A stretch of DNA of 64,000 nucleotides from Callorhinchus milii. Taxonomy: Eukaryota. A program made the position numbers and the translations under genes. The stretch spans positions 133,364,001-133,428,000 of the forward strand of contig NW_024704742.1 in the NCBI RefSeq assembly GCF_018977255.1, read 5' to 3'. The notes under the pieces are model-generated. The model had not been told where the DNA came from, did not search any database, and was given only the letters and a program-made list of their open reading frames with translations. Of this stretch, positions 7,788 to 61,230 are shown piece by piece. The stretch's first letter is position 1; every line of letters begins with the position of its first letter.

Positions 7788-8152
7788 GGAGGCCTGTAGC
7801 ACATTGGTTAGTGCACTCGCCTCGCAAGCGAGAGGACCCGAGTTTGACTGGGGCAAAACCTTACGCAAATTTCCTTACCCTACACTCCTCTGTTTACCGA
7901 GCAAGTAAGTAGGAGCCCAGTTGTTAGTCAATTGGCAGATCGCTTTCTGGAGATAATAATCCTTCCAAATTTTTTTAAAAATTAATAATTTGGTTACTTA
8001 ATCCACAATTGTTTGTGGGACACTGCTGTGCGCAATTGGCTGCCATGTTTTGCCCAGAAAATAGTCAATCCACTTTACAATATATCTTGTGAAGTGCTTT
8101 GAGACGTCTCAACGAAAAGATAAGGTCCAATATAAAATGCAAGGATTATTAT
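7788..8152 (+). mobile_element. SINE family A, full-length long form
   Basis: tRNA-Ala-like head ctcgcctcgcaagcgag, body, and tail aaatgcaaggattatt. Confidence 0.9.
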
Positions 8153-8743: not shown

Positions 8744-9108
8744 AATAATAATAATCCTTGCATTTGATATAGCGCCTTATCATGTCTTCGAGCGTATCAA
8801 AGCGCTTCATTAAATATACTGTAAATTGAATTGACTCTATATCTTGTGGGCGAAACGCAGCAACCAATTGCACACGGCAGCGTCCCCACAAACAGTCGTG
8901 GATTGAGTGACCAAATTTTTTTGAAGGATTTATTACTCCCGGAAAAGCGATCTGCCAATCGACTAACAACCGGATTCCTACTTTCTGCTAGGTAAGCAGA
9001 AGTGTGTGGAGTAAGGAAATGTGCCTAACATTTCGCCCTGCCCAGGAATCAAACCCAGGTCTCTCGCTTGCGAGGCGAGTGCTCTAACCACTGAGCTACA
9101 GGACTCCA
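8744..9108 (-). mobile_element. SINE family A, full-length long form
   Basis: Reverse complement begins tggagtcctgtagctcagtggttagagcactcgcctcgcaagcgagagacc. Confidence 0.92.
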
Positions 9109-12852: not shown

Positions 12853-12888
12853 ATCACTCTTCCTGAACTTTGCTTTCAGGCTCTTCAT
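12853..12888 (-). CDS. RAI14: RAI14 (ankycorbin) first coding segment, MKSLKAKFRKSD; the gene continues leftward beyond the window
   Basis: Reverse complement reads ATG AAG AGC CTG AAA GCA AAG TTC AGG AAG AGT GAT followed by a GTAAGT donor (phase 0). The peptide matches the vertebrate RAI14 N-terminus MKSLKAKFRKSD(TNEW...) as I recall it. Start context aaaATGa has A at -3. Confidence 0.93.
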
Positions 12889-12902
12889 TTTCACTCAATT
12901 CC

Positions 12903-12923
12903 TTACGACAGAGCGGCAGACAT
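12903..12923 (-). other. Upstream ORF (MSAALS*) in the RAI14 5'UTR
   Basis: ATG TCT GCC GCT CTG TCG TAA lies inside exon 2 and ends 14 nt before the main ATG. Confidence 0.7.
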
Positions 12924-13473
12924 CAAGAATAAACACCTACAAACAGGCAAAAGAAATTACTAAATCTTAATCCCCTCCAAAAAAAAAAAACTTGCTCGAT
13001 ATTTGATGGTGAAAAGATATTTGGTACATGAAAAAAAAGATATTACTTCAATCATCAGTGACTTGACCCACAAACAATTTACATTAATGCTTCCGAGAGA
13101 ACAACGCACTGAAATTATGGGTGTAAAGTGCTTTTTCCCCTCTCTCCCTCTCTTCAGACACCAGTTCAATGATTGAACTTCGATCCAGGCAGCAAGTTAA
13201 ACTGCAACTGCATTTCAACCTCAGGAACCTCAATATCTTTCTTAAAAATGGTTGTTTTAAAGCTTTTTGGGGGTTAACGTCGATTTTTATTCAAAGAATC
13301 GAGTACGTTCAAAGGGGTTTTCTTTTCCTAAAGGAGTTTTTTTTTCAACGAAACCAAAAATGCAAAACTTTTATTTGAAACTTTCAAAACTTTTTTCGTT
13401 TAAATAGATGGCTTTTCGACAACCGAAAATCTGTGTTTAAGTTTCTTTTAAAATATATATACATATATATATT

Positions 13474-15873: not shown

Positions 15874-15955
15874 CCGCAGAGCAGAGCAGAGCCGAGAGTG
15901 TGTGTGCGTTTTGCTGAGTGAGTGCGTGAGTGAGTGGAGTGAGTGACTGAGAGCG
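15874..15955 (-). other. RAI14: Probable non-coding exon 1 of RAI14 (5' end approximate)
   Basis: Consensus donor ctgcgg|GTGAGT (15873-15868) in CpG-rich unique sequence. Tandem Inr-like TCAGTC/TCACTC motifs at ~15953-15913. Lies 2.9 kb upstream of exon 2 on the same strand. Confidence 0.65.
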
Positions 15956-16035
15956 GAGTCCGCACCTCTCACACCGCTATTGTCACTGGAGCGCACTCTC
16001 GTCATCCGCAAACCGCGCACACCCCCAGTCCCTGA
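15913..16035 (-). promoter_or_regulatory. Putative TATA-less, CpG-rich RAI14 core promoter with a CRE half-site (TGACG, 16004-16000) and Inr-like repeats
   Basis: Local CpG enrichment (gtgcgcggtttgcggatgacgagagtgcgc) directly upstream of the donor-bearing exon. Confidence 0.55.
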
Positions 16036-16036
16036 T

Positions 16037-19000
16037 CTGTGTAACAGCCCCTGTGTACTGCCCTGTGTACTGCCCTGTGTAATGCCCCGTGTAACAGCCC
16101 TGTGTAATGCCCGTGTAACAGCCCCTGTGTACTGCCCTGTGTAATGCCCCGTGTAACAGCCCTGTGTAACAGCCCCTGTGTACTGCCCTGTGTAATGCCC
16201 TGTGTAACAGCCCTGTGTAACAGCCCCTGTGTAACAGCCCTGTGTAACAGCCCTGTGTAATGCTCTGTGTAACAGCCCCGTGTAATGCCCTGTGTAACAG
16301 CCCCGTGTAATGCCCTGTGTAACAGCCCCGTGTAATGCCCTGTGTAACAGCCCCGTGTAATGCCCTGTGTAACAGCCCCGTGTAATGCCCTGTGTAACAG
16401 CCCCGTGTAATGCACTGTGTAATGCTCTGTGTAACAGCCCCTGTGTAACAGCCCTGTGTAATGCCCCGTGTAACAGCCCCGTGTAATGCCCCGTGTAACA
16501 GCCCCGTGTAATGCCCCGTGTAACAGCCCTGTGTAATGCCCCGTGTAACAGCCCCGTGTAATACCCCGTGTAACAGCCCCTGTGTACTGCCCTGTGTAAT
16601 GCTCTGTGTAACAGCCCTGTGTAACAGCCCTGTGTAACAGCCCTGTGTAACAGCCCTGTGTAACAGCCCTGTGTAATGCCCCGTGTAACAGCCCTGTGTA
16701 ATGCCCTGTGTAACAGCCCTGTGTAATGCCCTGTGTAACAGCCCTGTGTAATGCTCTGTGTAACAGCCCCGTGTAATGCTCTGTGTAACAGCCCTGTGTA
16801 ATGCCCTGTGTAACAGCCCCGTGTAATGCTCTGTGTAACAGCCCGGTGTAATGTCCTGTGTAACAGCCCTGTGTAATGCCCTGTGTAACAGCCGTGTGTA
16901 ATGCCCCGTGTAACAGCCCTGTGTAATGCCCCGTGTACAGCCCTGTGTAATGCCCTGTGTAACAGCCCTGTGTAATGCCCTGTGTAACAGCCCTGTGTAA
17001 TGATCTGTATAACAGCCCTGTGTAATGCTCTGTGAAATGCTCTGTGTAACAGCCCTGTGTAATGCCCCGTGTAACAGCCCTGTGTAATGCCCTGTGTAAC
17101 AGCCCTGTGTAAAAGCCCTGTGTAATGCCCTGTGTAACAGCCCTGTGTAATGCCCTGTGTAATGCCCCATGTAACAGCCCTGTGTAACAGCCCTGTGTAA
17201 TGCCCCGTGTAACAGCCCTGTGTAATGCCCCGTGTAACAGCCCTGTGTAATGCCCCGTGAAATGCTCTGTGTAACAGCCCTGTGTAATGCTCTGTGTAAT
17301 GCTCTGTGTAACAGCCCTGTGTAATGCCCTGTGTAACAGCCCTGTGTAATGCTCTGTGTAACAGCCCCGTGTAATGCTCTGTGTAACAGCCCTGTGTAAT
17401 GCCCTGTGTAACAGCCCTGTGTAATGCTCTGTGTAACAGCCCGGTGTAATGTCCTGTGTAACAGCCCTGTGTCATGCTCTGTGTAACAGCCCTGTGTAAT
17501 GTCCTGTGTAACAGCCCTGTGTAATGCCCTGTGTAACAGCCCCTGTGTAATGCCCCGTGTAACACCCCCGTGTAATGCCCCGTGTAACAGCCCCGTGTAA
17601 TGCCCCGTGTAACAGCCCCTGTGTAATGCCCCGTGTAACAGCCCTGTGTAATGCCCCGTGTAACAGCCCTGTGTAATGTCCCGGGTAACAGCCCTGTGTA
17701 ATGCCCCGTGTAACAGCCCTGTGTAATGCCCTGTGCAACAGCCTGTGTAACAGCCCTGTGTAATGCCCTGTGTAACAGCCCTGTGTAATGCCCTGTGTAA
17801 CAGCCCTGTGTAACAGCCCTGTGTAATGCCCCGTGTAACAGCCCTGTGTAATGCCCCGTGTAACAGCCCTGTGTAATGCCCCATGTAACAGCCCTGTGTA
17901 ATGCCCTGTGTAACAGCCCCGTCTAATACCCCATGTAACAGCTCTGTGTAATGCCCTGTGTAATACACTGTGTATTGCCCTGTGTAACAGCCCGTCTAAT
18001 ACTCTGTGTAACAGCCCTGTGTAACAGTGCCATGTTTAACAGCTCTGTCTGGTACCCTGTGTAATACTCTGTGTAACAGCCCTGTGTAATGCCCCGTGTA
18101 CAGCCCTGTGTAATGCCCTGTGTAACAGCCCTGTGTAATGCTCTGTGTAATGCTCTGTGTAACAGCCCTGTGCAATGATCTATGTAACAGCCCTGTGTAA
18201 TGCCCCGTGTAACAGCCCTGTGTAATGCCCCGTGTAACAGCCCTGTGTAATGCCCCGTGTAACAGCCCCGTGTAATGCCCCGTGTAACAGCCCCGTGTAA
18301 TGCCCCGTGTAACAGCCCTGTGTAATGCCCCGTGTAACAGCTCTGTGTAATGCCCTGTGCAAAAGCCTGTGTAACAGCCCTGTGTAATGCCCTGTGTAAC
18401 AGTCCTGTGTAATGCCCTGTGTAACAGCCCTGTCTAATACCCCATGTAACAGCTCTGTGTAATACTCTGTGTAACAGCCCTGTGTAATACCCTGTGTAAC
18501 AGCCCTGTGTAATAGCCCGTCTAATACTCTGTGTAACAGCCCTGTGTAACAGTGCCATGTTTAACAGCTCTGTCTGGTACCCTGTGTAATACTCTGTGTA
18601 ACAGCCCTGTGTAATGCCCTGTGTAACAGCCCTGTGTAACAGCCCTGTGTAATGCCTCGTGTAACAGCCCTGTGTAATACCCCATGTAACAGCCCTGTGT
18701 AATGCCCCATGTAACAGCCCTGTGTAAAGCCCCGTGTAAGAGCCCTGTGTAATGCCCTGTGTAACAGCCCTGTGTAACAGCCCTGTGTAACAGCCTTGTG
18801 TAATGATCTGTGTAACAGCCCTGTGTAATGCTCTGTGTAATGCTCTGTGTAACAACCCTGTGTAATGCCCTGTGTAACAGCCCTGTGTAATGCCCTGTGT
18901 AATGATCTGTGTAACAGCCCTGTGTAATGCTCTGTGAAATGCTCTGTGTAACAGCCCTGTGTAATGCTCTGTGTAATGCTCTGTGTAACAGCCCTGTGCA

Positions 19001-19930
19001 ATGATCTATGTAACAGCCCTGTGTAATGCTCTGTGTAACAGCCCTGTGTAATGCCCCGTGTAACAGCCCTGTGTAATGCCCCGTGTAACAGCCCTGTGTA
19101 ATGCCCCGTGTAACAGCCCCGTGTAATGCCCTGTGTAACAGCCCCGTGTAATGCCCCGGGTAACAGCCCCGTGTAATGCCCCGTGTAACAGCCCTGTGTA
19201 ATGCCCCGTGTAACAGCCCCTGTGTAATGCCCCGTGTAACAGCTCTGTGTAATGCCCCGTGTAACAGCCCTGTGTATTGCCCTGTGTAACAGCCCGTCTA
19301 ATACTCTGTGTGACAGCCCTGTGTAACAGTGCCATGTTTAACAGCTCTGTCTGGTACCCTGTGTAATACTCTGTGTAACACTCCTGTGTAATAGTGCCAT
19401 GTGTAACACCCATGTGTAATGCCCTGTGTAACAGCCCTGTGTAATACTCTGTGTAACAGCCCTGACTAATACCCCGTGTAACAGCCCTGTGTAATACCCT
19501 GTGTAACAGCCCTGTCTAACACCCTGTGTAACAGCCCTGTCTAATACTCTGTGTAACAGCCCTGTCTAATGCCCCGTGTAACAGCCCTGTGTAATACTCT
19601 GTGTAACAGCCCTGTGTCTAATACCCTGTGTAACAGTACCATGTGTAATAGACCTGTCTAATACTCTGTGTAACAGCCCTGACTAATACCCCGTGTAACA
19701 GCCCTGTGTAATACCCTGTGTAACAGCCCTGTGTAATAGTGCCATGTGTAACATCCCTGTCTAATACCCTGTGTAACAGCCCTGTGTAACAGTGCCTTAT
19801 GTAACAGTGCCCTGTGTAACAGTGCCCTGTGTAACAGTGCCCTGTGTAACAGTGCCCTGTGTTTAATACCCTGTGTAACAGCCCTGTCTCTAATATCCTG
19901 GGCAACAGCCCTGTTTAACACCTCTGTATC
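16037..19930. repeat. ~3.9-kb minisatellite of interspersed 13-nt CTGTGTAACAGCC and 12-nt CTGTGTAATGCC units
   Basis: Hundreds of tandem units, often alternating as a 25-nt dimer; degenerates toward ~19900. Confidence 0.98.
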
Positions 19931-32441: not shown

Positions 32442-32728
32442 AATAATAATCCTTGCATTTGATATAGCACCTTATCATGTCGATGAGACGTCTCAAGCAT
32501 TTCACAGAATATACTATAAAGTATACTTGGTCGGCGAAATGTGGCAACCAATTGACACAGCAGTGTCCCATAAACAGTTGTGGATAGAGTGATCGAATTA
32601 CTATTATTTATTTGCTTTAGGGGATTATTACGCCCAGAAAGTGATCTGCTAATCAACTAACAACAGGGTTCCTACTTACTGCTAGGTAAACAGAGGCGAG
32701 TGGAGTAAGGAAACTTGCCTGAGGTTTG
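32442..32728 (-). mobile_element. SINE family A, body and tail
   Basis: Reverse complement of the family A tail and body up to aaacttgcctgaggttt. Confidence 0.85.
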
Positions 32729-32936
32729 AAACAAAAACAGAGAGAGCTGGGAAAACTCAGAAGGTCAGGCAGCATCTATGAAGAAAGGAAAGTGAGTCAA
32801 CATTTTGGATCCACGACCCTTCGTCAGTTGCACCTGCACTTTCCTTTCTCCATAGATGCTGCCTGACCTGCTGAGTTTTCCCAGCTCTCTCTGTTTTTGT
32901 TTCAGATTTCCAGCATCTGCCGTATTTTGTGTTTTG
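32729..32936. mobile_element. Penelope-like element remnant: inverted pseudo-LTR pair with a 14-bp TSD
   Basis: ttgcctgaggtttg is duplicated at 32715-32728 and 32937-32950. The arms (~32727-32790 and ~32840-32904) contain gatgctgcctgacctgctgag, typical of shark Penelope termini. Confidence 0.8.
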
Positions 32937-33924
32937 TTGCCTGAGGTTTGGTTAGCTCTCCTCTTTACTGTTGGTGAGATTTTCCACAAAAAGATTGAGG
33001 AAGCACTAATCAGGTTTGCCTTATGTGTCGTTGGTTCTATTATCTTAATGTCTCACCTGAGGGACTGTCTGGCTCGCAGAGACTAATGCCCTCACTGGGA
33101 AGGATAAAAGCTTTCCTTTCGCCTGAAAAACACATGTTGGCAACATATGCAGTAAAGTGATATTTTACCCAAGGGATTCCCAGACACCAGTCTTGTGTCA
33201 TTGTTACAGCCCTTTCAAGATGGATTGAGATGAGTGCAATTTAACTGCGTCCCCAGCATATTATTTAGTCAATTCACTTCACAGTATATCCCGTGAAGCA
33301 CTTTGAGACGTCTCGAAGATGTGATAAGGAACTATATCAAATGCAAGGATTATTATTAATATTATTATTATATTGGGAGTCAGCTTGCAACAGAATGCGT
33401 TCAAGAATAAAGATGAAACATAAATTTACAAGAATATTTAGATTCACAAACCAGAACAATACGAATTTACATTGATACATCTACGATGTCCCAAACCGCT
33501 TCACACGATTTACTGTGAAGTGAGTTGACTGTGCATTTTGTAGGCAAATGCAGCAGCCAAATTGCACACATTACCAGCTGTAACAGTGGAGTGAGCTCTC
33601 CAAGAAAGATTAGAAAGCTTGTAGCTTTCCTCCAAAGGAGGCAAGATGATTGAGAGAGGGACCTTTTAGAAGTGTTCAAGGATTCGCTAAGGTGGACACA
33701 GACAGGCTGTTTCCATTTGTTTCTCCTCTGCCTCAGGGTGGTGAAATTATTTTAGTGAAGTCGTGACCAAATTAAGACCAGATTTAAGTATTTTCCAAAA
33801 TTCTGCACCATCTTAAATCTTGAAGCACAACAGACTCACTGGCTGCGATCAGGAGAAATCCCGAGTATTGGATTCACTGAGTCACATCCTGATAGGCACT
33901 TGGTTCAAGCAAGACTTATCTTAA

Positions 33925-35924: not shown

Positions 35925-36613
35925 AATAGTAAGCTTTGTATTTGAATAGTGCCTTATCGGGTTGTTGAGACATCTCAAAGTGCTTCACAGAATATACTGT
36001 AAAGTGAATTGACTGTATATTTTGTGGGCGAAACTTGATAGCCAATTGCGCACAGCAGTGTCCCACAAACAGTGACCAAATTATCATTATTCACTTTTTT
36101 GAAGGGATTATTATCCCAGAAAGTGATCTGCCAATTGACTAACAACCGGGTTCCTACTTACTGCTCGGTAAATAATAATAATAATAATCCTTGCATTTGA
36201 TATAGCGCTTTTCACGTCGGGAGGACGTCCCAAAGCGCTTCACAGAACACACTGTAAAGTGAATTGACTGTATATTTGTGGGCGAACGCAGCAGCCAATT
36301 GCGCACAGCAATGTCCCACAAACAGTCGTAGATTGAAAATGACCAATTTATTATTGTTTTTGGTTTTGGAGGGATTATTATTAGACTCTGTGTGGAGTAA
36401 GGAAACTTGCCCAAGGTTTCGCCCTGACCTGCCTGGAATTGAACTCAGGTCTCTCGCTTGCAAAGCGAGTGCTCTAACCACTGAGCTACAGGACTCCTCA
36501 TAGAGGTATGTGGAGTAAGGAAACACTGTCTCACTTTTCACCCCGCCCGGGAATCAAACTCGGGTCCTCTCGCTTACGTGGCGAGTTCTCTAACCAATAA
36601 GCTACAGGACTCC
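35925..36613 (-). mobile_element. Long SINE-A with a nested short-subfamily SINE-A (36171-36497)
   Basis: The host breaks at ctgctcggtaa and resumes at tagaggtatgtggagtaagg; the insert is a complete short copy. Confidence 0.9.
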
Positions 36614-37350
36614 AAAGTGAGTTACATACTATGTAACTGTGAAACAGCTGGATACCTGCAGGATTTGGTGCATTTCTTTGCCTTTTATCCCTTCCCCCCG
36701 CCATCTTACATATTCCGCAGATTTCTTGTCCAACAACTATGAATCTAAAGTTCCCTCTGGAGTTTGCTGACACAATCTGCTTTCAGCATGGTCCTTCCTT
36801 GCCTTTATATAATGCCCCTCATGCAGGGTAGTGTCCCAGAGCACTTGACCATGCCACAGGCCACAGTTCCTGTGTAAAATGATTATCTAAGCTTTTCATC
36901 CACTTGGACAGTTGGACAATGCTGCATTATGCCATCAGAAGGGGTGGAAAAGGAGGGTGGGGAGGGGGGGAGGTGTATGTTGGCCCCTCACAGTCTCGGA
37001 GGCGATCAACAACAAGTTACATTTGTATAGCGCCCTTCACATCGGAAAGACGTCCCAGGGTGCTAGACAATCAGGCATTTTGAACCCGAGCTGGGAACTG
37101 GGGTCAGAAGGGGAAGAAGGCATGGGTGGGTGGGGGTGGGAGGGTGGCTGAAGGCGAAGAGGAAGGTCTTCCAGAGTGTGGGGGCAGAGATGCTAAATGC
37201 CCGACTGGTGGGGCGGGAATTTTGGGGTACCTGAAGCAGGCCGGTGTCCACTGAATGGAGGGAGCAGACAGGCTGATATTGGGTTATGAGGTCGGAGAGT
37301 TAGGGGGGAGCAAGACTGTGGAGAGGCTTGAAGGTAACAGCAAGGATTTT

Positions 37351-37456
37351 ATAACAAAGACAGAAGTCGCTGGGAACACTCAGCAGGTCAGGCAGCATCT
37401 ATGGAGGAAGGAAAGTGAGTCAACGTTTCGGGTTCACGACCCTTCGTCAGAACTGA
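37351..37456 (-). mobile_element. Penelope-like pseudo-LTR fragment
   Basis: Homologous to the 32729 element. Flanked by caaggatttt (37341-37350) and caagggtttt (37457-37466), a 9/10 TSD. Confidence 0.8.
37418..37454 (-). ncRNA. Minimal type I hammerhead ribozyme motif
   Basis: RNA reads AGUU CUGACGA A GGGU CGUGA ACCC GAAA CG UU GACU. Core boxes CUGANGA and GAAA, helix II GGGU/ACCC, helix I AGUU/GACU, and palindromic AACGUU in place of helix III. Confidence 0.7.
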
Positions 37457-38202
37457 CAAGGGTTTTGTACTTGATTCTTTGAGGAATAGGGAGCTAGTGA
37501 AGCCCAGCAAGAAAAAAGGTGATAGGTTCCTGGAGCCTGGTGCGGGAGAGGACACGGGCTGTTGAGTTTCGAATAATCTGCAGTTTGTGGAGGGAAGAGT
37601 TGGAAAGTCCAGTGAGCAGGCAGTTGGTGAAGTCAAGCCGGGACATAATGAAAACATGGATCAGGCCTGTGGTGAGAGGCAGTAGAGGAGGCGGGCAATG
37701 TTGCGGAGTTGTGGAAAGATGGAACGGGTCACGGTGCACATGTGGGGTTTGAAGGATAGCTGAGGGTCGAAAAGGACACTGAGGTTTCAGATTGGCTCTG
37801 TGAGGTGAAGAGTGGGGTCGAGGGTTCTTATAATTCTGTGGCTGAAAGCTTCTTTTGACTCTCCATTCTCCCAACTTTTATTGTTATCGATCCACCGGCC
37901 AGCAGGAATGATCCAAGGCATTGTTCGAAACAATTATCACATGAGCCATTTGCTCCCTTGTGTACATAGTTAGTGGTTTTACATTTTTGACATTCCTGAT
38001 GCCTTTGTTTTCATACTCTGGCCTCCCTCGCTCTCTTTAATCCTATAAATGGGCTTCTTCAGCTCAATTGTTCCAATTCTGATCTGTTGTACATTCCAAC
38101 ATTCACATCCCTTGCCAACTTTCTTCCCTTCCTCTCCCGCAGGCATTTGACTCCTCTTTATCCTTTATGTTGCTAACCTAGGTTCTGTGGTATTGTTCAA
38201 TT

Positions 38203-39674: not shown

Positions 39675-42540
39675 ACAACCACAACAACAACAACTTGGAT
39701 TTATGTTGCGCCCTCCACGCTGGACGGCGTCTCAGAGCGCTTCGCAGTGATGGATCCTGGGGCTGAGCCAGGGGGAGGGGGAGGAAGATGACCAAAGGCA
39801 CGGTCAAAAAGAAAGGTCTTCAGCAGAGACCTGAAAATAGGAAGAGAGAGGACGAGGCAAAGGGAGTGAGGAAGGCAGTTCCAGAGCCTCAGGGCATAGT
39901 GGCTGAAAGCACGGCCACCGAGGGTGGAGCGGAGGACTCGGGGGACAAGGAGGAGGCCAGACCCGGTGGAACAAAGGCAAAGGGTACTATTTTGAGGAGA
40001 GAGGTGGTCAGAGAAGTGGGGGTTGCAGAGGAGTGTAGGGACTTGAATACAAGGATGAGGATCCTCTCTGGGACAGGCAGTCAGTGCAGTCTGGCAAGGA
40101 CTGGGGTAATCGGGGAGCGGAGTTTGGTGCGGGTGAGATTGTGGGCGGCAGAGTTTTGAATCTGGATCTTATGGTTGGTAGTGGAGGGGAGGCTGGCAAG
40201 GAGGGCATTAGAGTAGCCAGCCGAGAGGTGACAAAGGCATGGAGCAGGGTTTCAGCGGCTTTTGGAGTGAGGTATTGGCAGAGACAGGCGATGCGTCGGA
40301 GGTGGAAGAAAGCGGTGCTGGTGAGGGAGCAGATGTGAGGGAGGAAGGATAATTGGGGGTTGAACCTTAGGTTACATATAGGTTTGGAGAGTTTTAGGGG
40401 GAGGTCGGGTAGGTGAAGGAGGTGAGAATCTTGAGATTTTAGACATTGACGAGAGCCGAAGAGTATGGCTTCCGTCTTGTCAACGTTCAGCTGAAGGAAA
40501 TTTGCGCTCATCCAGCCCTTGAGGTCTGACAGGCATACTGACAGAACATCAGGGGACTGGGGATCGCAAAGAGAGGTGGAAAAATAGAGTTGAATGTCGT
40601 CCGCATACATGTGGAAATGTACCCCATGTCTGGGGTTGACATCCCCAAGAGGGAGCATGTAGATCAGAAAGAGGAGTGGGCCAAGGATGGATCCTTGGGG
40701 TACCCCGCAGGTAACCGGTTGAGAGCGGGAGGAGAAGCCGTTTGTGCAGATGTACTGCTGGCGGTTTGTGAGGTAGGACTCGAACCAGGCGAGTGCGGTC
40801 CCACTGAGGTGGATGACGGAGGAAAGGCGGTAGAGGAGGATGGCGTGAATGACAGTGTTGAACGCGGCGGAGAGGTCCAGGAGGAGAGGAGGCAGAGGGA
40901 GCCCTGGTCACAGATAGAGAGGATTTTGTTTGTGACTTTCACAAGCAGTCTCTGTGCTGTGGGCAGGGCGGAAACCAGACTGGAGGGGATCGAAGAGGAA
41001 ATGGGAGGAGAGGTGTGCGCAAAGTTGATTGGCAACAATGTGTCCTAGGACGTCTGCGAGGAAGGGCAGGTTAGAAATAGGGCAATCGTGGCTTGGGTTT
41101 TGCGGGATCTAGGGAAGGTTTTTAAGGAGGGGTGTGATTACAACAGTTTTGAGGGGGACAGGGACTGATCCGGAGGAGAGGGACTGGTTGATCATATCAG
41201 CCAGTAGTGGGCAGAGGAGGGGGAGCTGGGTGAGCAGCAAGTTGGTGGGGAGGAGGTAAAGGCAGCAGGTGGTGGGTTTCATGGAGGTGATGGTGGATGA
41301 GAGGGAGGAGGGAGAGATGGGAAGGAAAGAATGTAGGACGGGGGTGGTGGTAGGAGCAGATGATGGAGAGGGTGAGGGGGACAGAGAGGGAGTGGTGGTG
41401 GGTGACAAGGGGCAGGTGGATGAGGCTGCCTGGCGGATGTTATGTATTTTAGAAGAGAAGAAGTCCATGACCTCCTTGTACTTGACATTTGATATGAAGA
41501 TTGAGGAGGCCTGAGGGGCGCACGGAGGAGGTAGTGGGTGGTGGAAAAAAGGATTTTAGGGTTGTGTTTAGCCTCCAAGATGATGTTGAAGTAAAAGGCC
41601 ACTTTTGCGCATGTCAAAGAATGAAGGTAGTTGTGGAGATGCTCGAGCCACAGTTGGCGGTGAACTGTCAGGCCAGTTTTCCGCCATTTGTGTTCGAGTA
41701 GACAGGTTTGGGTTTTTTGGCGGCAGAGTTGGTTGTTGTACCGGGGGAATGGGTGGGTTTGGAGATGGTCCTGGATTTTAGGGGGACGGGGAAGTTGAAG
41801 GTGGAGGAGAGGCGATCATGGAGCAGCTGGATGGCTGCTTCAGGATCTCCGTGGGTGGAAGGCCAGAGGGATAGGATGTTTGATGATGTGAGGGTCTCAG
41901 GGGGTAGCCTTTTCCAAGGGCCGTAGAGGATGGTTGAGGGCTTGGTGGGGGAGAGAGGGATGTGAGAGGAGAAGAAGATGAGGAAGTGGTCCGAGATGCC
42001 TTGTCCACTATGCTGAGGTCGGAAATGTCAAGGCCATGGGTGATAATGAGGTCAAGTGCATCGCCACGGTTGTGGGTAGGTGAATTTATATGAAGGGTGA
42101 GGTTTAGGAAGGAGGAGAGGGCAGTGAAATCGGCAGAAATGGTGCAAGGGGAGTTTAGGTGGAGGTTGAAATCACCCATTATGAGCAGAGGGACAGGGAA
42201 GAGAGGAGAGTAGAGATGTCTGTGTGGAAGGAGCCGGGGGGCTTAAGGGGGAGGACGATAGACAAGGAGGATTTTCAATGGGAGAGAGGGGTGGAAGAGG
42301 GTGAGGTGCTCAAAGGAGGGGAAGCAGCCAGATGAGTAGGGGGTAAGACCAAGGGAGGCTTTGGAAACCCCGCTGCCATGTTGGTTTGGACGGGGAGGGG
42401 GGTGGGGGCTGGTGGAAGGTGTAGCCTGGAGGGGAGGCTTCCACTAGGAGGACGGGGTCATTGGGGGAGAGCCAGGTTTCGGTGAGCCCAAGATGTCAAG
42501 GTGCTCATCCAGGATGAGGTCGTGGATGGGGAGGGCTTTG
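39675..42540 (-). mobile_element. L2 LINE with nearly complete but disrupted ORF2 (APE endonuclease plus reverse transcriptase)
   Basis: APE motifs DLILDEHLDI.GLTETW, MGDFNLHLN and PTHNRGDALDLIIT; RT motifs HMYADDIQLY and WMSANFLQLNVDKTE; many frameshifts; (TTG)n tail at ~39675-39695. Confidence 0.95.
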
Positions 42541-47640: not shown

Positions 47641-47952
47641 TGGAGTCATGTAGCTCAGTAGTTAGAGCACTCGCCTTGCAAGCAAGACACCTGGGTTCAA
47701 TTCCAGGCAGGACGAAATCTTGGGCAAGTTTCCTTACTCCACACGCCTAATAATAATCCCTCCAAAACAAAACAATAATAAATTGGTCAGTTTCAATCCA
47801 CGGCTTGTGGGACACTGCTGTGCGCAATTGGCTGCCGCGTTTCGCCCACAAAATATACACGGTCAATTTACTTTACAGTCTATTCTGTGAAGCGCTTTGA
47901 GATGTCGAGAAGAGGTGAAAAGCGCTATATCAAATGCAAGGATTATTATGTT
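47641..47952 (+). mobile_element. SINE family A, short subfamily
   Basis: tRNA head with a TGC anticodon-like loop and the ccacacgcctaataataatccc deletion junction. Confidence 0.9.
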
Positions 47953-57716: not shown

Positions 57717-58088
57717 GTGGAGTCCTGTGGCTTAGTGGCTAGAGCTCTCGCTTCGCAACCGAGAGGACCTGGGTTCGATTCCTGACAGGGTGAAACTTTA
57801 GGCAAGTTTCCTTACTCCGCACGCCTCTGTTTACCTCGCAGTAAATAGAAACTCTGTTGTTTGTTGATTAGCAGATCGCTTTTCCGGGGGTAATAATCCC
57901 TTAAAAACAATAATAATAATTTGGTCAGTCATTCCATGACTGTTTGTGGGACACTGCTGTGTGCAATTGGCTGCCCCATTTCAATATATATGGTCAATTC
58001 ACTTTACAGTATATTCTGTGAAGCGCTTTGAGATTCTCGAAGATGTAATAAGGTGCTATATCAAATGCAAGTATGATTATTATTATTA
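57717..58088 (+). mobile_element. SINE family A, full-length long form
   Basis: A-box, B-box gggttcgattcc, body and tail. Confidence 0.9.
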
Positions 58089-58728: not shown

Positions 58729-59112
58729 AATAATAATAATAATCCTTTCATTTGATATATCGCCTTATCATGTTCTTGAGATGTCTTAAAGCGCTTCACA
58801 GAATATACTGCAAAGTGAATTGACTGTATATTTTGTGGGTGAAACACTGCAGCCAATCGCGCACAGCAGTGTCCCACAAACAGTTGTGAATTTAGTGACC
58901 AATTTATTATTTTTTAAATTTATTTTTGGAAGGAATTATTACCTCCGGAAAAGCAATCCATCAATCGACTAACAACCGGGTTCCTACTTACTCCTAGATA
59001 AACAGAGGCGTGTGGAGTAAGGAAATTTGCCCAACATTTCACCCTGTCCGGAATCGATCCCAGGTCTCTCGCTTGCGAGGCGAGTGCTCTAACCATTGAG
59101 CTAAAGGACTAC
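58729..59112 (-). mobile_element. SINE family A, full-length long form
   Basis: Complete reverse-complement copy ending gagtgctctaaccattgagctaaaggact. Confidence 0.9.
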
Positions 59113-60239: not shown

Positions 60240-61230
60240 TAAATACTTGCTTTTGATACAGCTCCTTATCACATTGTTGTGACATCTCAAAAGGCTTTGC
60301 AAGGTTTACTATGGAACATAGTGACCGTGTATTTGTAGGTGCATATGGCAGCCAAATTGCACACAGCAACGTCTCGCAACAACCAATGAACTGAGTGACT
60401 GATTTTGGGTGGAGATTACACACAGGAAGAAACTCTCTTCCCTTGTCGAACAGCGCCGTGGGATCTTTACTGTCCACCTGCATAGGCGACTAGGACCTTG
60501 GTTTAACATCTCATCCATGCAATCCACTCTCAGCACTGCTTCAAGTCCCGCTCACTTCCTGCCCCACCATCGGAGGTTGGGCATTCAGCATCTCTGCCCC
60601 AACACTCTGGAACTTTATCCCAGAATCTCTCCGCTTCACCCGACCTCTTGCTTCCTTCAAGTCCTGTCTAAATACCTTCTTCTTATACCGTGCATTCAGC
60701 CACCATGCCATTCCCACCCCTCCTGACTCCAAAAATCCCTGACTGTCCAGCACCCTGGGATGTCTTCCCGGTGTGAAAGGTGCTGTACAAGTGTAATTTG
60801 TTGTTGCATTGGAATGTCAGCATAGAATGTGGGTTCAAAGTCCTGACATGGGTCCTGTAGCTCAGTGCTTAGAGCACTCGCTTTGCAAGTGAGAGACCTG
60901 AGTTCAATTCCAGGGCAAAACCTTGGGCAAGTTTCCTTACTCCACACAGAGCCTAATAATAATCCCTTCAAAAACCAAAAACAATAATAAAAATTGGTCA
61001 TTTTCAAACTACGACTGTTTGTGGGACATTGCTGTGCGCAATTGGCTGCCGCGTTCGCTCACAAAATATGCAGTCAATTCACTTTACAGTGTGTTCTGTG
61101 AAGCGCTTTGGGACGTCCTCCCGACGTGAAAAGCGCTATATCAAATGCAAGGATTATTATTATTATTATTATTGAACCCACAACTTTATGAGTCAGAGGC
61201 GAGAGAGAATTATCAACAGAACCAGGCTGA
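60240..61230 (-). mobile_element. Deu-domain SINE host containing an L2 fragment (~60535-60806, +) and a short SINE-A (60850-61173, +)
   Basis: Host pieces 60240-60535, 60806-60850 and 61174-61230 join into one family B copy. Confidence 0.8.

Follow-up and report, generated by a model that had tools for sequence, protein, structure and literature searches.

A truncated Penelope-like repeat fragment with a minimal hammerhead motif upstream of RAI14 in Callorhinchus milii

The window, a stretch of 64,000 nucleotides of Callorhinchus milii DNA that was analysed as a whole, contains two features on its minus strand that are assigned to RAI14.

12853..12936, minus strand: first coding exon of RAI14, with the ATG at 12888, reading MKSLKAKFRKSD and bounded by AG/GT ends
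15874..16000, minus strand: candidate non-coding first exon or promoter of RAI14, CpG-rich, with a donor-like GG/GTGAGT at 15874

The exon reading MKSLKAKFRKSD is taken by us to be the RAI14 N-terminus; no occurrence of this motif was found in literature text. The candidate first exon is immediately preceded, at about 16040-19900, by an extended tandem array of short period, with units such as GCCCTGTGTAAC, and a C/T-rich tract of low complexity, likewise long, follows it downstream at about 13.5-15.5 kb. Farther upstream, the remnant of an old LINE is interrupted by a short insert of Penelope-like element (PLE) type.

37160..37830 (bounds approximate), minus strand: 3' fragment of an old LINE ORF2 hosting the insert, with 64-71% identity to its paralogs in the window
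37351..37456, minus strand: terminal fragment (pseudo-LTR end) of a PLE-type repeat with high copy number, truncated at its 5' side and lacking the tail, recognized by a depth jump, loose ends and the duplication
37341..37350, plus strand: target-site duplication, copy at the 3' side of the element, 10 bp and extendable to 13, equal to the state of the LINE paralogs
37457..37466, plus strand: target-site duplication, copy at the 5' side of the element, with one mismatch at 37462
37439..37463: fold-back palindrome over the 5' junction, with arms of 12 and 11 nt and one gap

The two 10-mers of the duplication are separated by 106 nt and match at 9 of 10 positions, or at 11 of 13 when extended; such a short duplication at an AT-rich site is found in PLE insertions. 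The flanks of the insert rejoin as one LINE ORF2-type frame (PIPQRIKY/KILAVTFK), and three LINE paralogs within the window are uninterrupted at the insertion point. An RVT_1 match is present in a LINE paralog copy at 50.2-50.7 kb. The 106-nt insert with a 9/10 duplication inside a LINE, as proposed in a first-pass annotation of this sequence, is thereby confirmed, and the host LINE is presumably an 'L2'. Both the extra base and the mismatch in the duplication are explained by the junction palindrome, and the derived letters 37456 and 37462 each lengthen it. Another LINE copy, long and broken and with an RVT_1 match, lies at 40008-42242 on the minus strand, with more ORF2-like pieces upstream.

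The insert carries a hammerhead motif, which is composed of the following parts.

37418..37454, minus strand: minimal type I hammerhead motif, found by pattern match, structure descriptor and fold
37454-37451, minus strand: 5' strand of helix I, AGUU
37450-37444, minus strand: core, CUGACGA
37443, minus strand: extra A between the core and helix II
37442-37439, minus strand: helix II, GGGU, followed by the 5-nt loop CGUGA
37434, minus strand: private change of the focal copy; the family base at this position closes a fifth helix II pair
37433-37430, minus strand: helix II, ACCC
37429-37426, minus strand: GAAA, followed by CG
37423, minus strand: U16.1
37422, minus strand: U17
37421-37418, minus strand: 3' strand of helix I, GACU
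between 37422 and 37421, minus strand: predicted cut site

Rereading of the sequence confirmed the minus-strand letters as they had been reported earlier. The CUGANGA, GAAA and NUH parts of the core stand in type I order, an extra base (the A at 37443) lies between positions 9 and 10.1, and helix III is cut down to a palindromic 15.2/16.2 (A-C-G-U, 37426-37423). Helix I consists of 4 bp, namely A-U, G-C, U-A and a core-adjacent U.G wobble as the closing pair, and helix II of this copy has 4 bp and a 5-nt loop, with G10.1-C11.1 represented by G37442-C37430. In place of helix III the first-pass annotation had named an AACGUU palindrome; the palindrome is present, but the helix of the dimer is ACGU/ACGU, and AACGUU includes A14 and U17. 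Both of these bases, which fall within the 6 nt of AACGUU, should remain unpaired in an active hammerhead core. The motif had also been called apparently intact. All catalytic core positions are indeed intact, and five of five CpGs are kept, against two in a relative at 32.8 kb of the window, but the fifth pair of helix II is gone through the change at 37434. Among the variants listed, a different base occupies this position in 97-99% of the family depth in all four contig runs described below, and the relative at 32.8 kb also has the family base. Helix II is thus 4 bp long in the focal copy versus 5 bp in the family, and this weakening change is the sole non-family change inside the motif among those variants.

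A sequence-pattern scan of the 64-kb window returned this motif as its single match, and none of 100 shuffles gave a match. In a check against hammerhead models, as had been suggested earlier, a structure-aware descriptor matched once in the 64-kb window and in 0 of 200 shuffles; the Rfam covariance models gave no hammerhead match at the gathering score, nor at E<=10 on 1 kb around the motif, where 7 weak matches all fell far under the gathering score.

The minimal hammerhead consensus of PLEs published in 2014, NNN CUGANGAH GNNNNN..NNNNNC GAAAN-palindrome-NUH NNN (Cervera and De la Pena 2014, PMC4209133), is fitted by the focal motif. According to the available parts of that article, the PLE motifs share with the focal one the type I order, CUGANGA plus one base, G10.1-C11.1, GAAA, the two-base palindrome, NUH and a 4-bp helix I, and they likewise occur mostly as solitary truncated copies, with thousands per genome. 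Of the 56 motifs aligned in its supplement, 15 have the same C-G-U-U stretch, counted by eye, and GUU is among the active NUH sites listed in PMC3138052. Several differences from the motifs of PMC4209133 can also be seen. The closing pair of helix I is U.G and helix II is short (4 bp; 5 in the family), and the focal family is known here without a parent ORF. No chondrichthyan is among the 56 motifs of that alignment, whereas the focal motif comes from the shark lineage. The 106-base stub is an ordinary example of the known PLE dimer-type hammerhead class.

The repeat family was examined in contig runs, four of the 24 listed being aligned to 37050-37850 at 85% likeness. Three are non-RNA runs (organisms A, B and C), and the fourth (X16) is only guessed to be RNA; all consist of contigs, which cannot show RNA ends. 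At 85% the alignment is swamped by paralogs, and among the listed pieces none spans the focal locus. Family homology covers about 37353-37455 of the insert. In the three non-RNA runs, the highest depth over the insert was 7x10^5, 3.7x10^6 and 6.6x10^6, and the median depth of the listed contigs (8 pieces per run) was 9.5, 26 and 55. The resulting ratios, about 0.8-1.4x10^5 for the tail part and 1-2.5x10^4 for the hammerhead part, are orders of magnitude and no true copy number. Contig depth in the three organisms places the insert in a family of very high copy number, roughly 10^4-10^5, and membership of a high-copy consensus family is another property of PLE minimal hammerheads.

The ends of the copies are also informative. 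On the 3' side, loose ends show copies that extend into the tail in 4/4 runs. On the 5' side, copies pass 37455 with one common upstream sequence in 4/4 runs (45-194 contigs), and other copies stop at 37453-37454, the 5' edge of helix I, with mixed flanks in at least three of the four (109-195 contigs per listed row, with an agreement of about 0.35). Among the joints listed, opposite-strand joints occur in at least two of the four runs. Joints that skip the insert were seen as well and may stem from other LINE copies. A second member of the family is present in the window itself, as a head-to-head composite.

32715..32950, both strands: second family member, a composite of two arms, 86.7% identity over 98 nt
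32730-32827, minus strand: minus arm, with a CpG-decayed hammerhead core
32837-32936, plus strand: plus arm, without the motif, ending in a one-sided tail of ~35 nt
32715-32728 and 32937-32950: 14-bp duplication, perfect at 14/14 positions

An inverted, 5'-truncated arm and a one-sided tail of 30-40 nt are thus seen at the family level, in this composite and in the contig joints and loose ends; the two are hallmarks of PLEs (PMC8557442, PMC3846280, in the parts available), and the tail has been explained by two internal start sites of reverse transcription (PMC11167929). Insertions of endonuclease-positive PLEs, as far as described in the available text of these three articles, show the same strong 5' truncation, together with a partner arm in inverted orientation, a 30-40-nt tail that may be present on one side, an AT-rich target, duplications of 8-14 bp and junction palindromes, the last of which have been interpreted as self-priming (PMC3846280). 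The focal copy differs from such units in being a single arm without a tail, and a Poseidon/Neptune clade call needs the ORF. The PLE-type origin claimed in the first-pass annotation is upheld by the motif, a minimal hammerhead of type I and of the PLE kind, and by the likeness of the insert to a PLE end fragment; membership rests on motif and insertion shapes because the family is not tied to an RT/GIY-YIG frame.

Two positional coincidences were observed near the cut site. The plus arm at 32837 begins 4 nt beyond the cut-site position of the hammerhead, and the opposite-strand joints in other organisms lie 7 nt past it. An arm start and joints 4 and 7 nt past the cut site could be a record of cleaved templates, or mere subfamily divergence.

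Since many copies end at 37453-37454 amid mixed flanks, the short unit might instead form a non-autonomous family in its own right, derived from PLEs in the manner of a retrozyme or SINE, with a defined 5' end at the hammerhead. Non-autonomous PLE derivatives and solo monomers have been described, one chondrichthyan included, in which the retrozymes have a mean consensus of 363 bp (bioRxiv 10.64898/2026.07.22.740005, in the text available). These non-LTR retrozymes and solo monomers resemble the focal insert in being non-coding and PLE-related, with a type I hammerhead and dispersed monomers. Nevertheless, this explanation is very unlikely. In all four runs other copies extend beyond 37455 into a single common upstream sequence, which makes the unit part of something longer. 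An inverted arm, and a tail that may or may not be present, are typical of PLEs, and the unit is not tandem at the focal locus. Active retrozymes consist of tandem units with at least two intact motifs (same preprint), whereas the focal insert is an isolated stub of 106 nt, and the whole 64 kb has one intact motif and no tandem array.

A motif scan of the 64-kb window revealed no PLE RT or GIY-YIG frame, and no parent PLE frame was returned by a protein search with the short frame MLPDLL.... This ATG frame follows, on the minus strand, a stretch at 37419-37399 just 3' of the cut, which by eye is 3' splice site-like (branch-like CUCAC, pyrimidine tract, AG). The frame was found in two shark gene models (the two that scored among six candidates), neither with an RT, and in one of these the repeat frame forms the N-terminus of an RNF14 isoform. 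A chondrichthyan source of the family fits the presence of its frame in shark gene models. The shared family sequence upstream of 37455 is also splice-acceptor-like, being pyrimidine-rich on the minus strand and ending in CAG; in D. virilis Penelope the intron end likewise lies at the 5' end of helix I (PMC4209133, available part). No family copies were found in viral contigs or in a first metagenome scan. A second metagenome scan yielded 19 loci with matches of 18-20 bases only, from which both sides diverge, and these were dropped as chance. Four 21-mers of the sequence had no occurrence in literature text.

In all likelihood, the insert arose dead on arrival, as a retro-copied 3' end (pseudo-LTR) of an abundant PLE family of sharks, and carries its hammerhead as cargo, probably silent. 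The endonuclease of a presumed ORF-bearing parent element would have nicked an AT-rich site in the old LINE with a stagger of 10-13 nt, and target-primed reverse transcription would then have begun internally on the RNA, from the inner one of two start sites, which would explain why the ~35-nt tail is missing. After about 103 nt had been copied, synthesis may have stopped just 5' of the hammerhead, and the 5' end may have been joined via a short fold-back or microhomology. This type of joining is suggested by the derived letters 37456 and 37462, both of which extend the palindrome, a coincidence that chance could also produce. In the parent element, any activity of the hammerhead would depend on tandem dimers or on assistance from the element's protein. 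The solo hammerhead at 37418-37454 most likely neither cuts RNA nor plays a role for RAI14.

Predicted folds agree with a silent copy only when the surroundings are considered. In the isolated 43-nt motif, helix I forms with a probability of 0.66 and helix II with 0.89. In four contexts of 61-401 nt, these values are 0.000 for helix I and about 0.001 for helix II, and the predicted share of the hammerhead fold is about 0.1%; such predictions leave proteins and co-transcriptional folding out of account. The junction hairpin at 37439-37463, with -11.9 kcal/mol as RNA, is predicted to pair the CUGACGA core with the flank, or else the core is predicted to be buried by the tract of the element that lies downstream. 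When the 5' flank was shuffled 200 times, helix II remained rare (mean 0.012, versus 0.001 for the real flank), and in 154 of these cases the core was buried no less than with the real flank. The junction hairpin was thus rejected as the sole silencer of the motif. A homodimer of the motif is predicted to pair via helix II, which is not the catalytic arrangement.

Published experiments on related motifs can be set beside these predictions. The S. mansoni motif tested showed no cleavage as a monomer and weak cleavage as a dimer or trimer (PMC4209133), and metazoan minimal motifs had no monomer activity and low dimer activity (PMC4209133, PMC6765202). The Anolis PLE hammerhead was cleaved only with the protein of the element; it was dispensable for insertion, and no RNA-seq ends were reported at its cleavage site (PMC11167929; all in the parts available). 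No second intact hammerhead that might serve as dimer partner was found in the 64 kb by the structure descriptor, nor any tandem copy, and the nearest relative of the focal copy, at 32.7 kb, is core-decayed. The earlier suggestion that this copy may still self-cleave after GUU therefore finds no support, as it is a lone monomer with a core buried in the predicted fold, of a kind that showed no activity without a partner or a protein in the published cases. We infer that the focal copy is inactive because there is no second motif, the fold is unfavourable, the 37434 change is present, and published monomers are uncut or protein-dependent. It is probably a lone, slightly decayed monomer, inert toward RNA. 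Against inertness stand the intact core, the five intact CpGs, the GUU triplet, which belongs to the active NUH sites, and the isolated 43-mer, which folds helices I and II.

It is unlikely, though conceivable with the same origin, that the copy is latently competent and is cut through ACGU pairing with a family transcript or through refolding by a protein, with no host benefit. The core in 37418..37454 is complete, family-like sequence is abundant in X16, the run guessed to be RNA, and weak cleavage of PLE motifs has been described for dimers or in the presence of protein (PMC4209133, PMC11167929, PMC6765202, as far as available). However, an intermolecular helix of 4 bp is weak, the predicted homodimer through helix II is not catalytic, and the core is predicted to be buried by the junction hairpin or the downstream tract.

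The position relative to RAI14 also needs consideration. The insert hammerhead lies on the strand of the RAI14 exon, and its cut site is about 21.4 kb from the CpG-rich candidate first exon with the donor-like site at 15874, which fits the earlier placement on the RAI14-sense strand ~21 kb upstream of the promoter. Mammalian RAI14 has distant alternative first exons, and a more distal first exon, as a candidate, would make the insert intronic. These facts, together with the intact core and CpGs, might favour an exapted host element, whose hammerhead cuts upstream or read-through RNA of the RAI14 strand, or a distal intron, and so tunes or insulates RAI14. Such a role is extremely improbable. 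With 10^4 or more copies, an intact sense-strand copy near some gene is expected by chance. The only listed non-family change in the motif weakens helix II, and the 64 kb contains no dimer partner for a motif that folds unfavourably. The proposal that the copy cuts an upstream or read-through transcript was accordingly not borne out, with no partner motif in 64 kb and the core buried in the fold. The hammerheads of RECK, CTCL and Clec2 are single-copy, conserved and monomer-active, and they possess a genuine helix III as well as tertiary contacts. The focal motif differs from these domesticated amniote hammerheads as a high-copy minimal motif without helix III or tertiary contacts. What it shares with the amniote intronic and UTR examples is a sense-strand hammerhead near a host gene (PMC6155905, available part).

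A bolder scenario would extend cutting to the whole family. Sharks would possess ~10^4 near-intact minimal hammerheads that are switched on in trans, by family RNA (through ACGU) or by a PLE protein, and that would sever host transcripts carrying a sense copy, the focal copy being one such site in upstream or first-intron RNA of RAI14. Such switching may leave, as a by-product, genomic copies with 5' ends marking the cut site, of which the arm at 32837 would be an example. This scenario is highly improbable. If it were true that any solo copy cuts host RNA, a passive repeat would become a genome-wide RNA cutter under the control of the element.

The hammerhead class is already in print for chondrichthyans, as retrozymes (bioRxiv 10.64898/2026.07.22.740005, in the text available). 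A literature search found no study of a shark Penelope hammerhead ribozyme; the single match uses the word 'shark' only for the shape of the ribozyme. The focal insert is one more copy of the class described in 2014, from a lineage missing in that alignment, and as such it matters little. In the shark families, on the other hand, dated insertion junctions number in the tens of thousands, and pile-ups of 5' ends compared with the cut site could show whether PLE hammerheads cut in vivo.

A further repeat type was encountered in the surroundings of the composite. The composite at 32.7 kb is embedded in sequence that is common to the tRNA-like repeats of the window, among which are eight similar Rfam matches.

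1620-1690, 7790-7846, 9034-9104, 36424-36495, 47644-47715, 57721-57793, 59039-59110 and 60851-60923: tRNA-like Rfam matches

Judged by their sequence, these eight matches are most likely the heads of a tRNA-derived SINE family.
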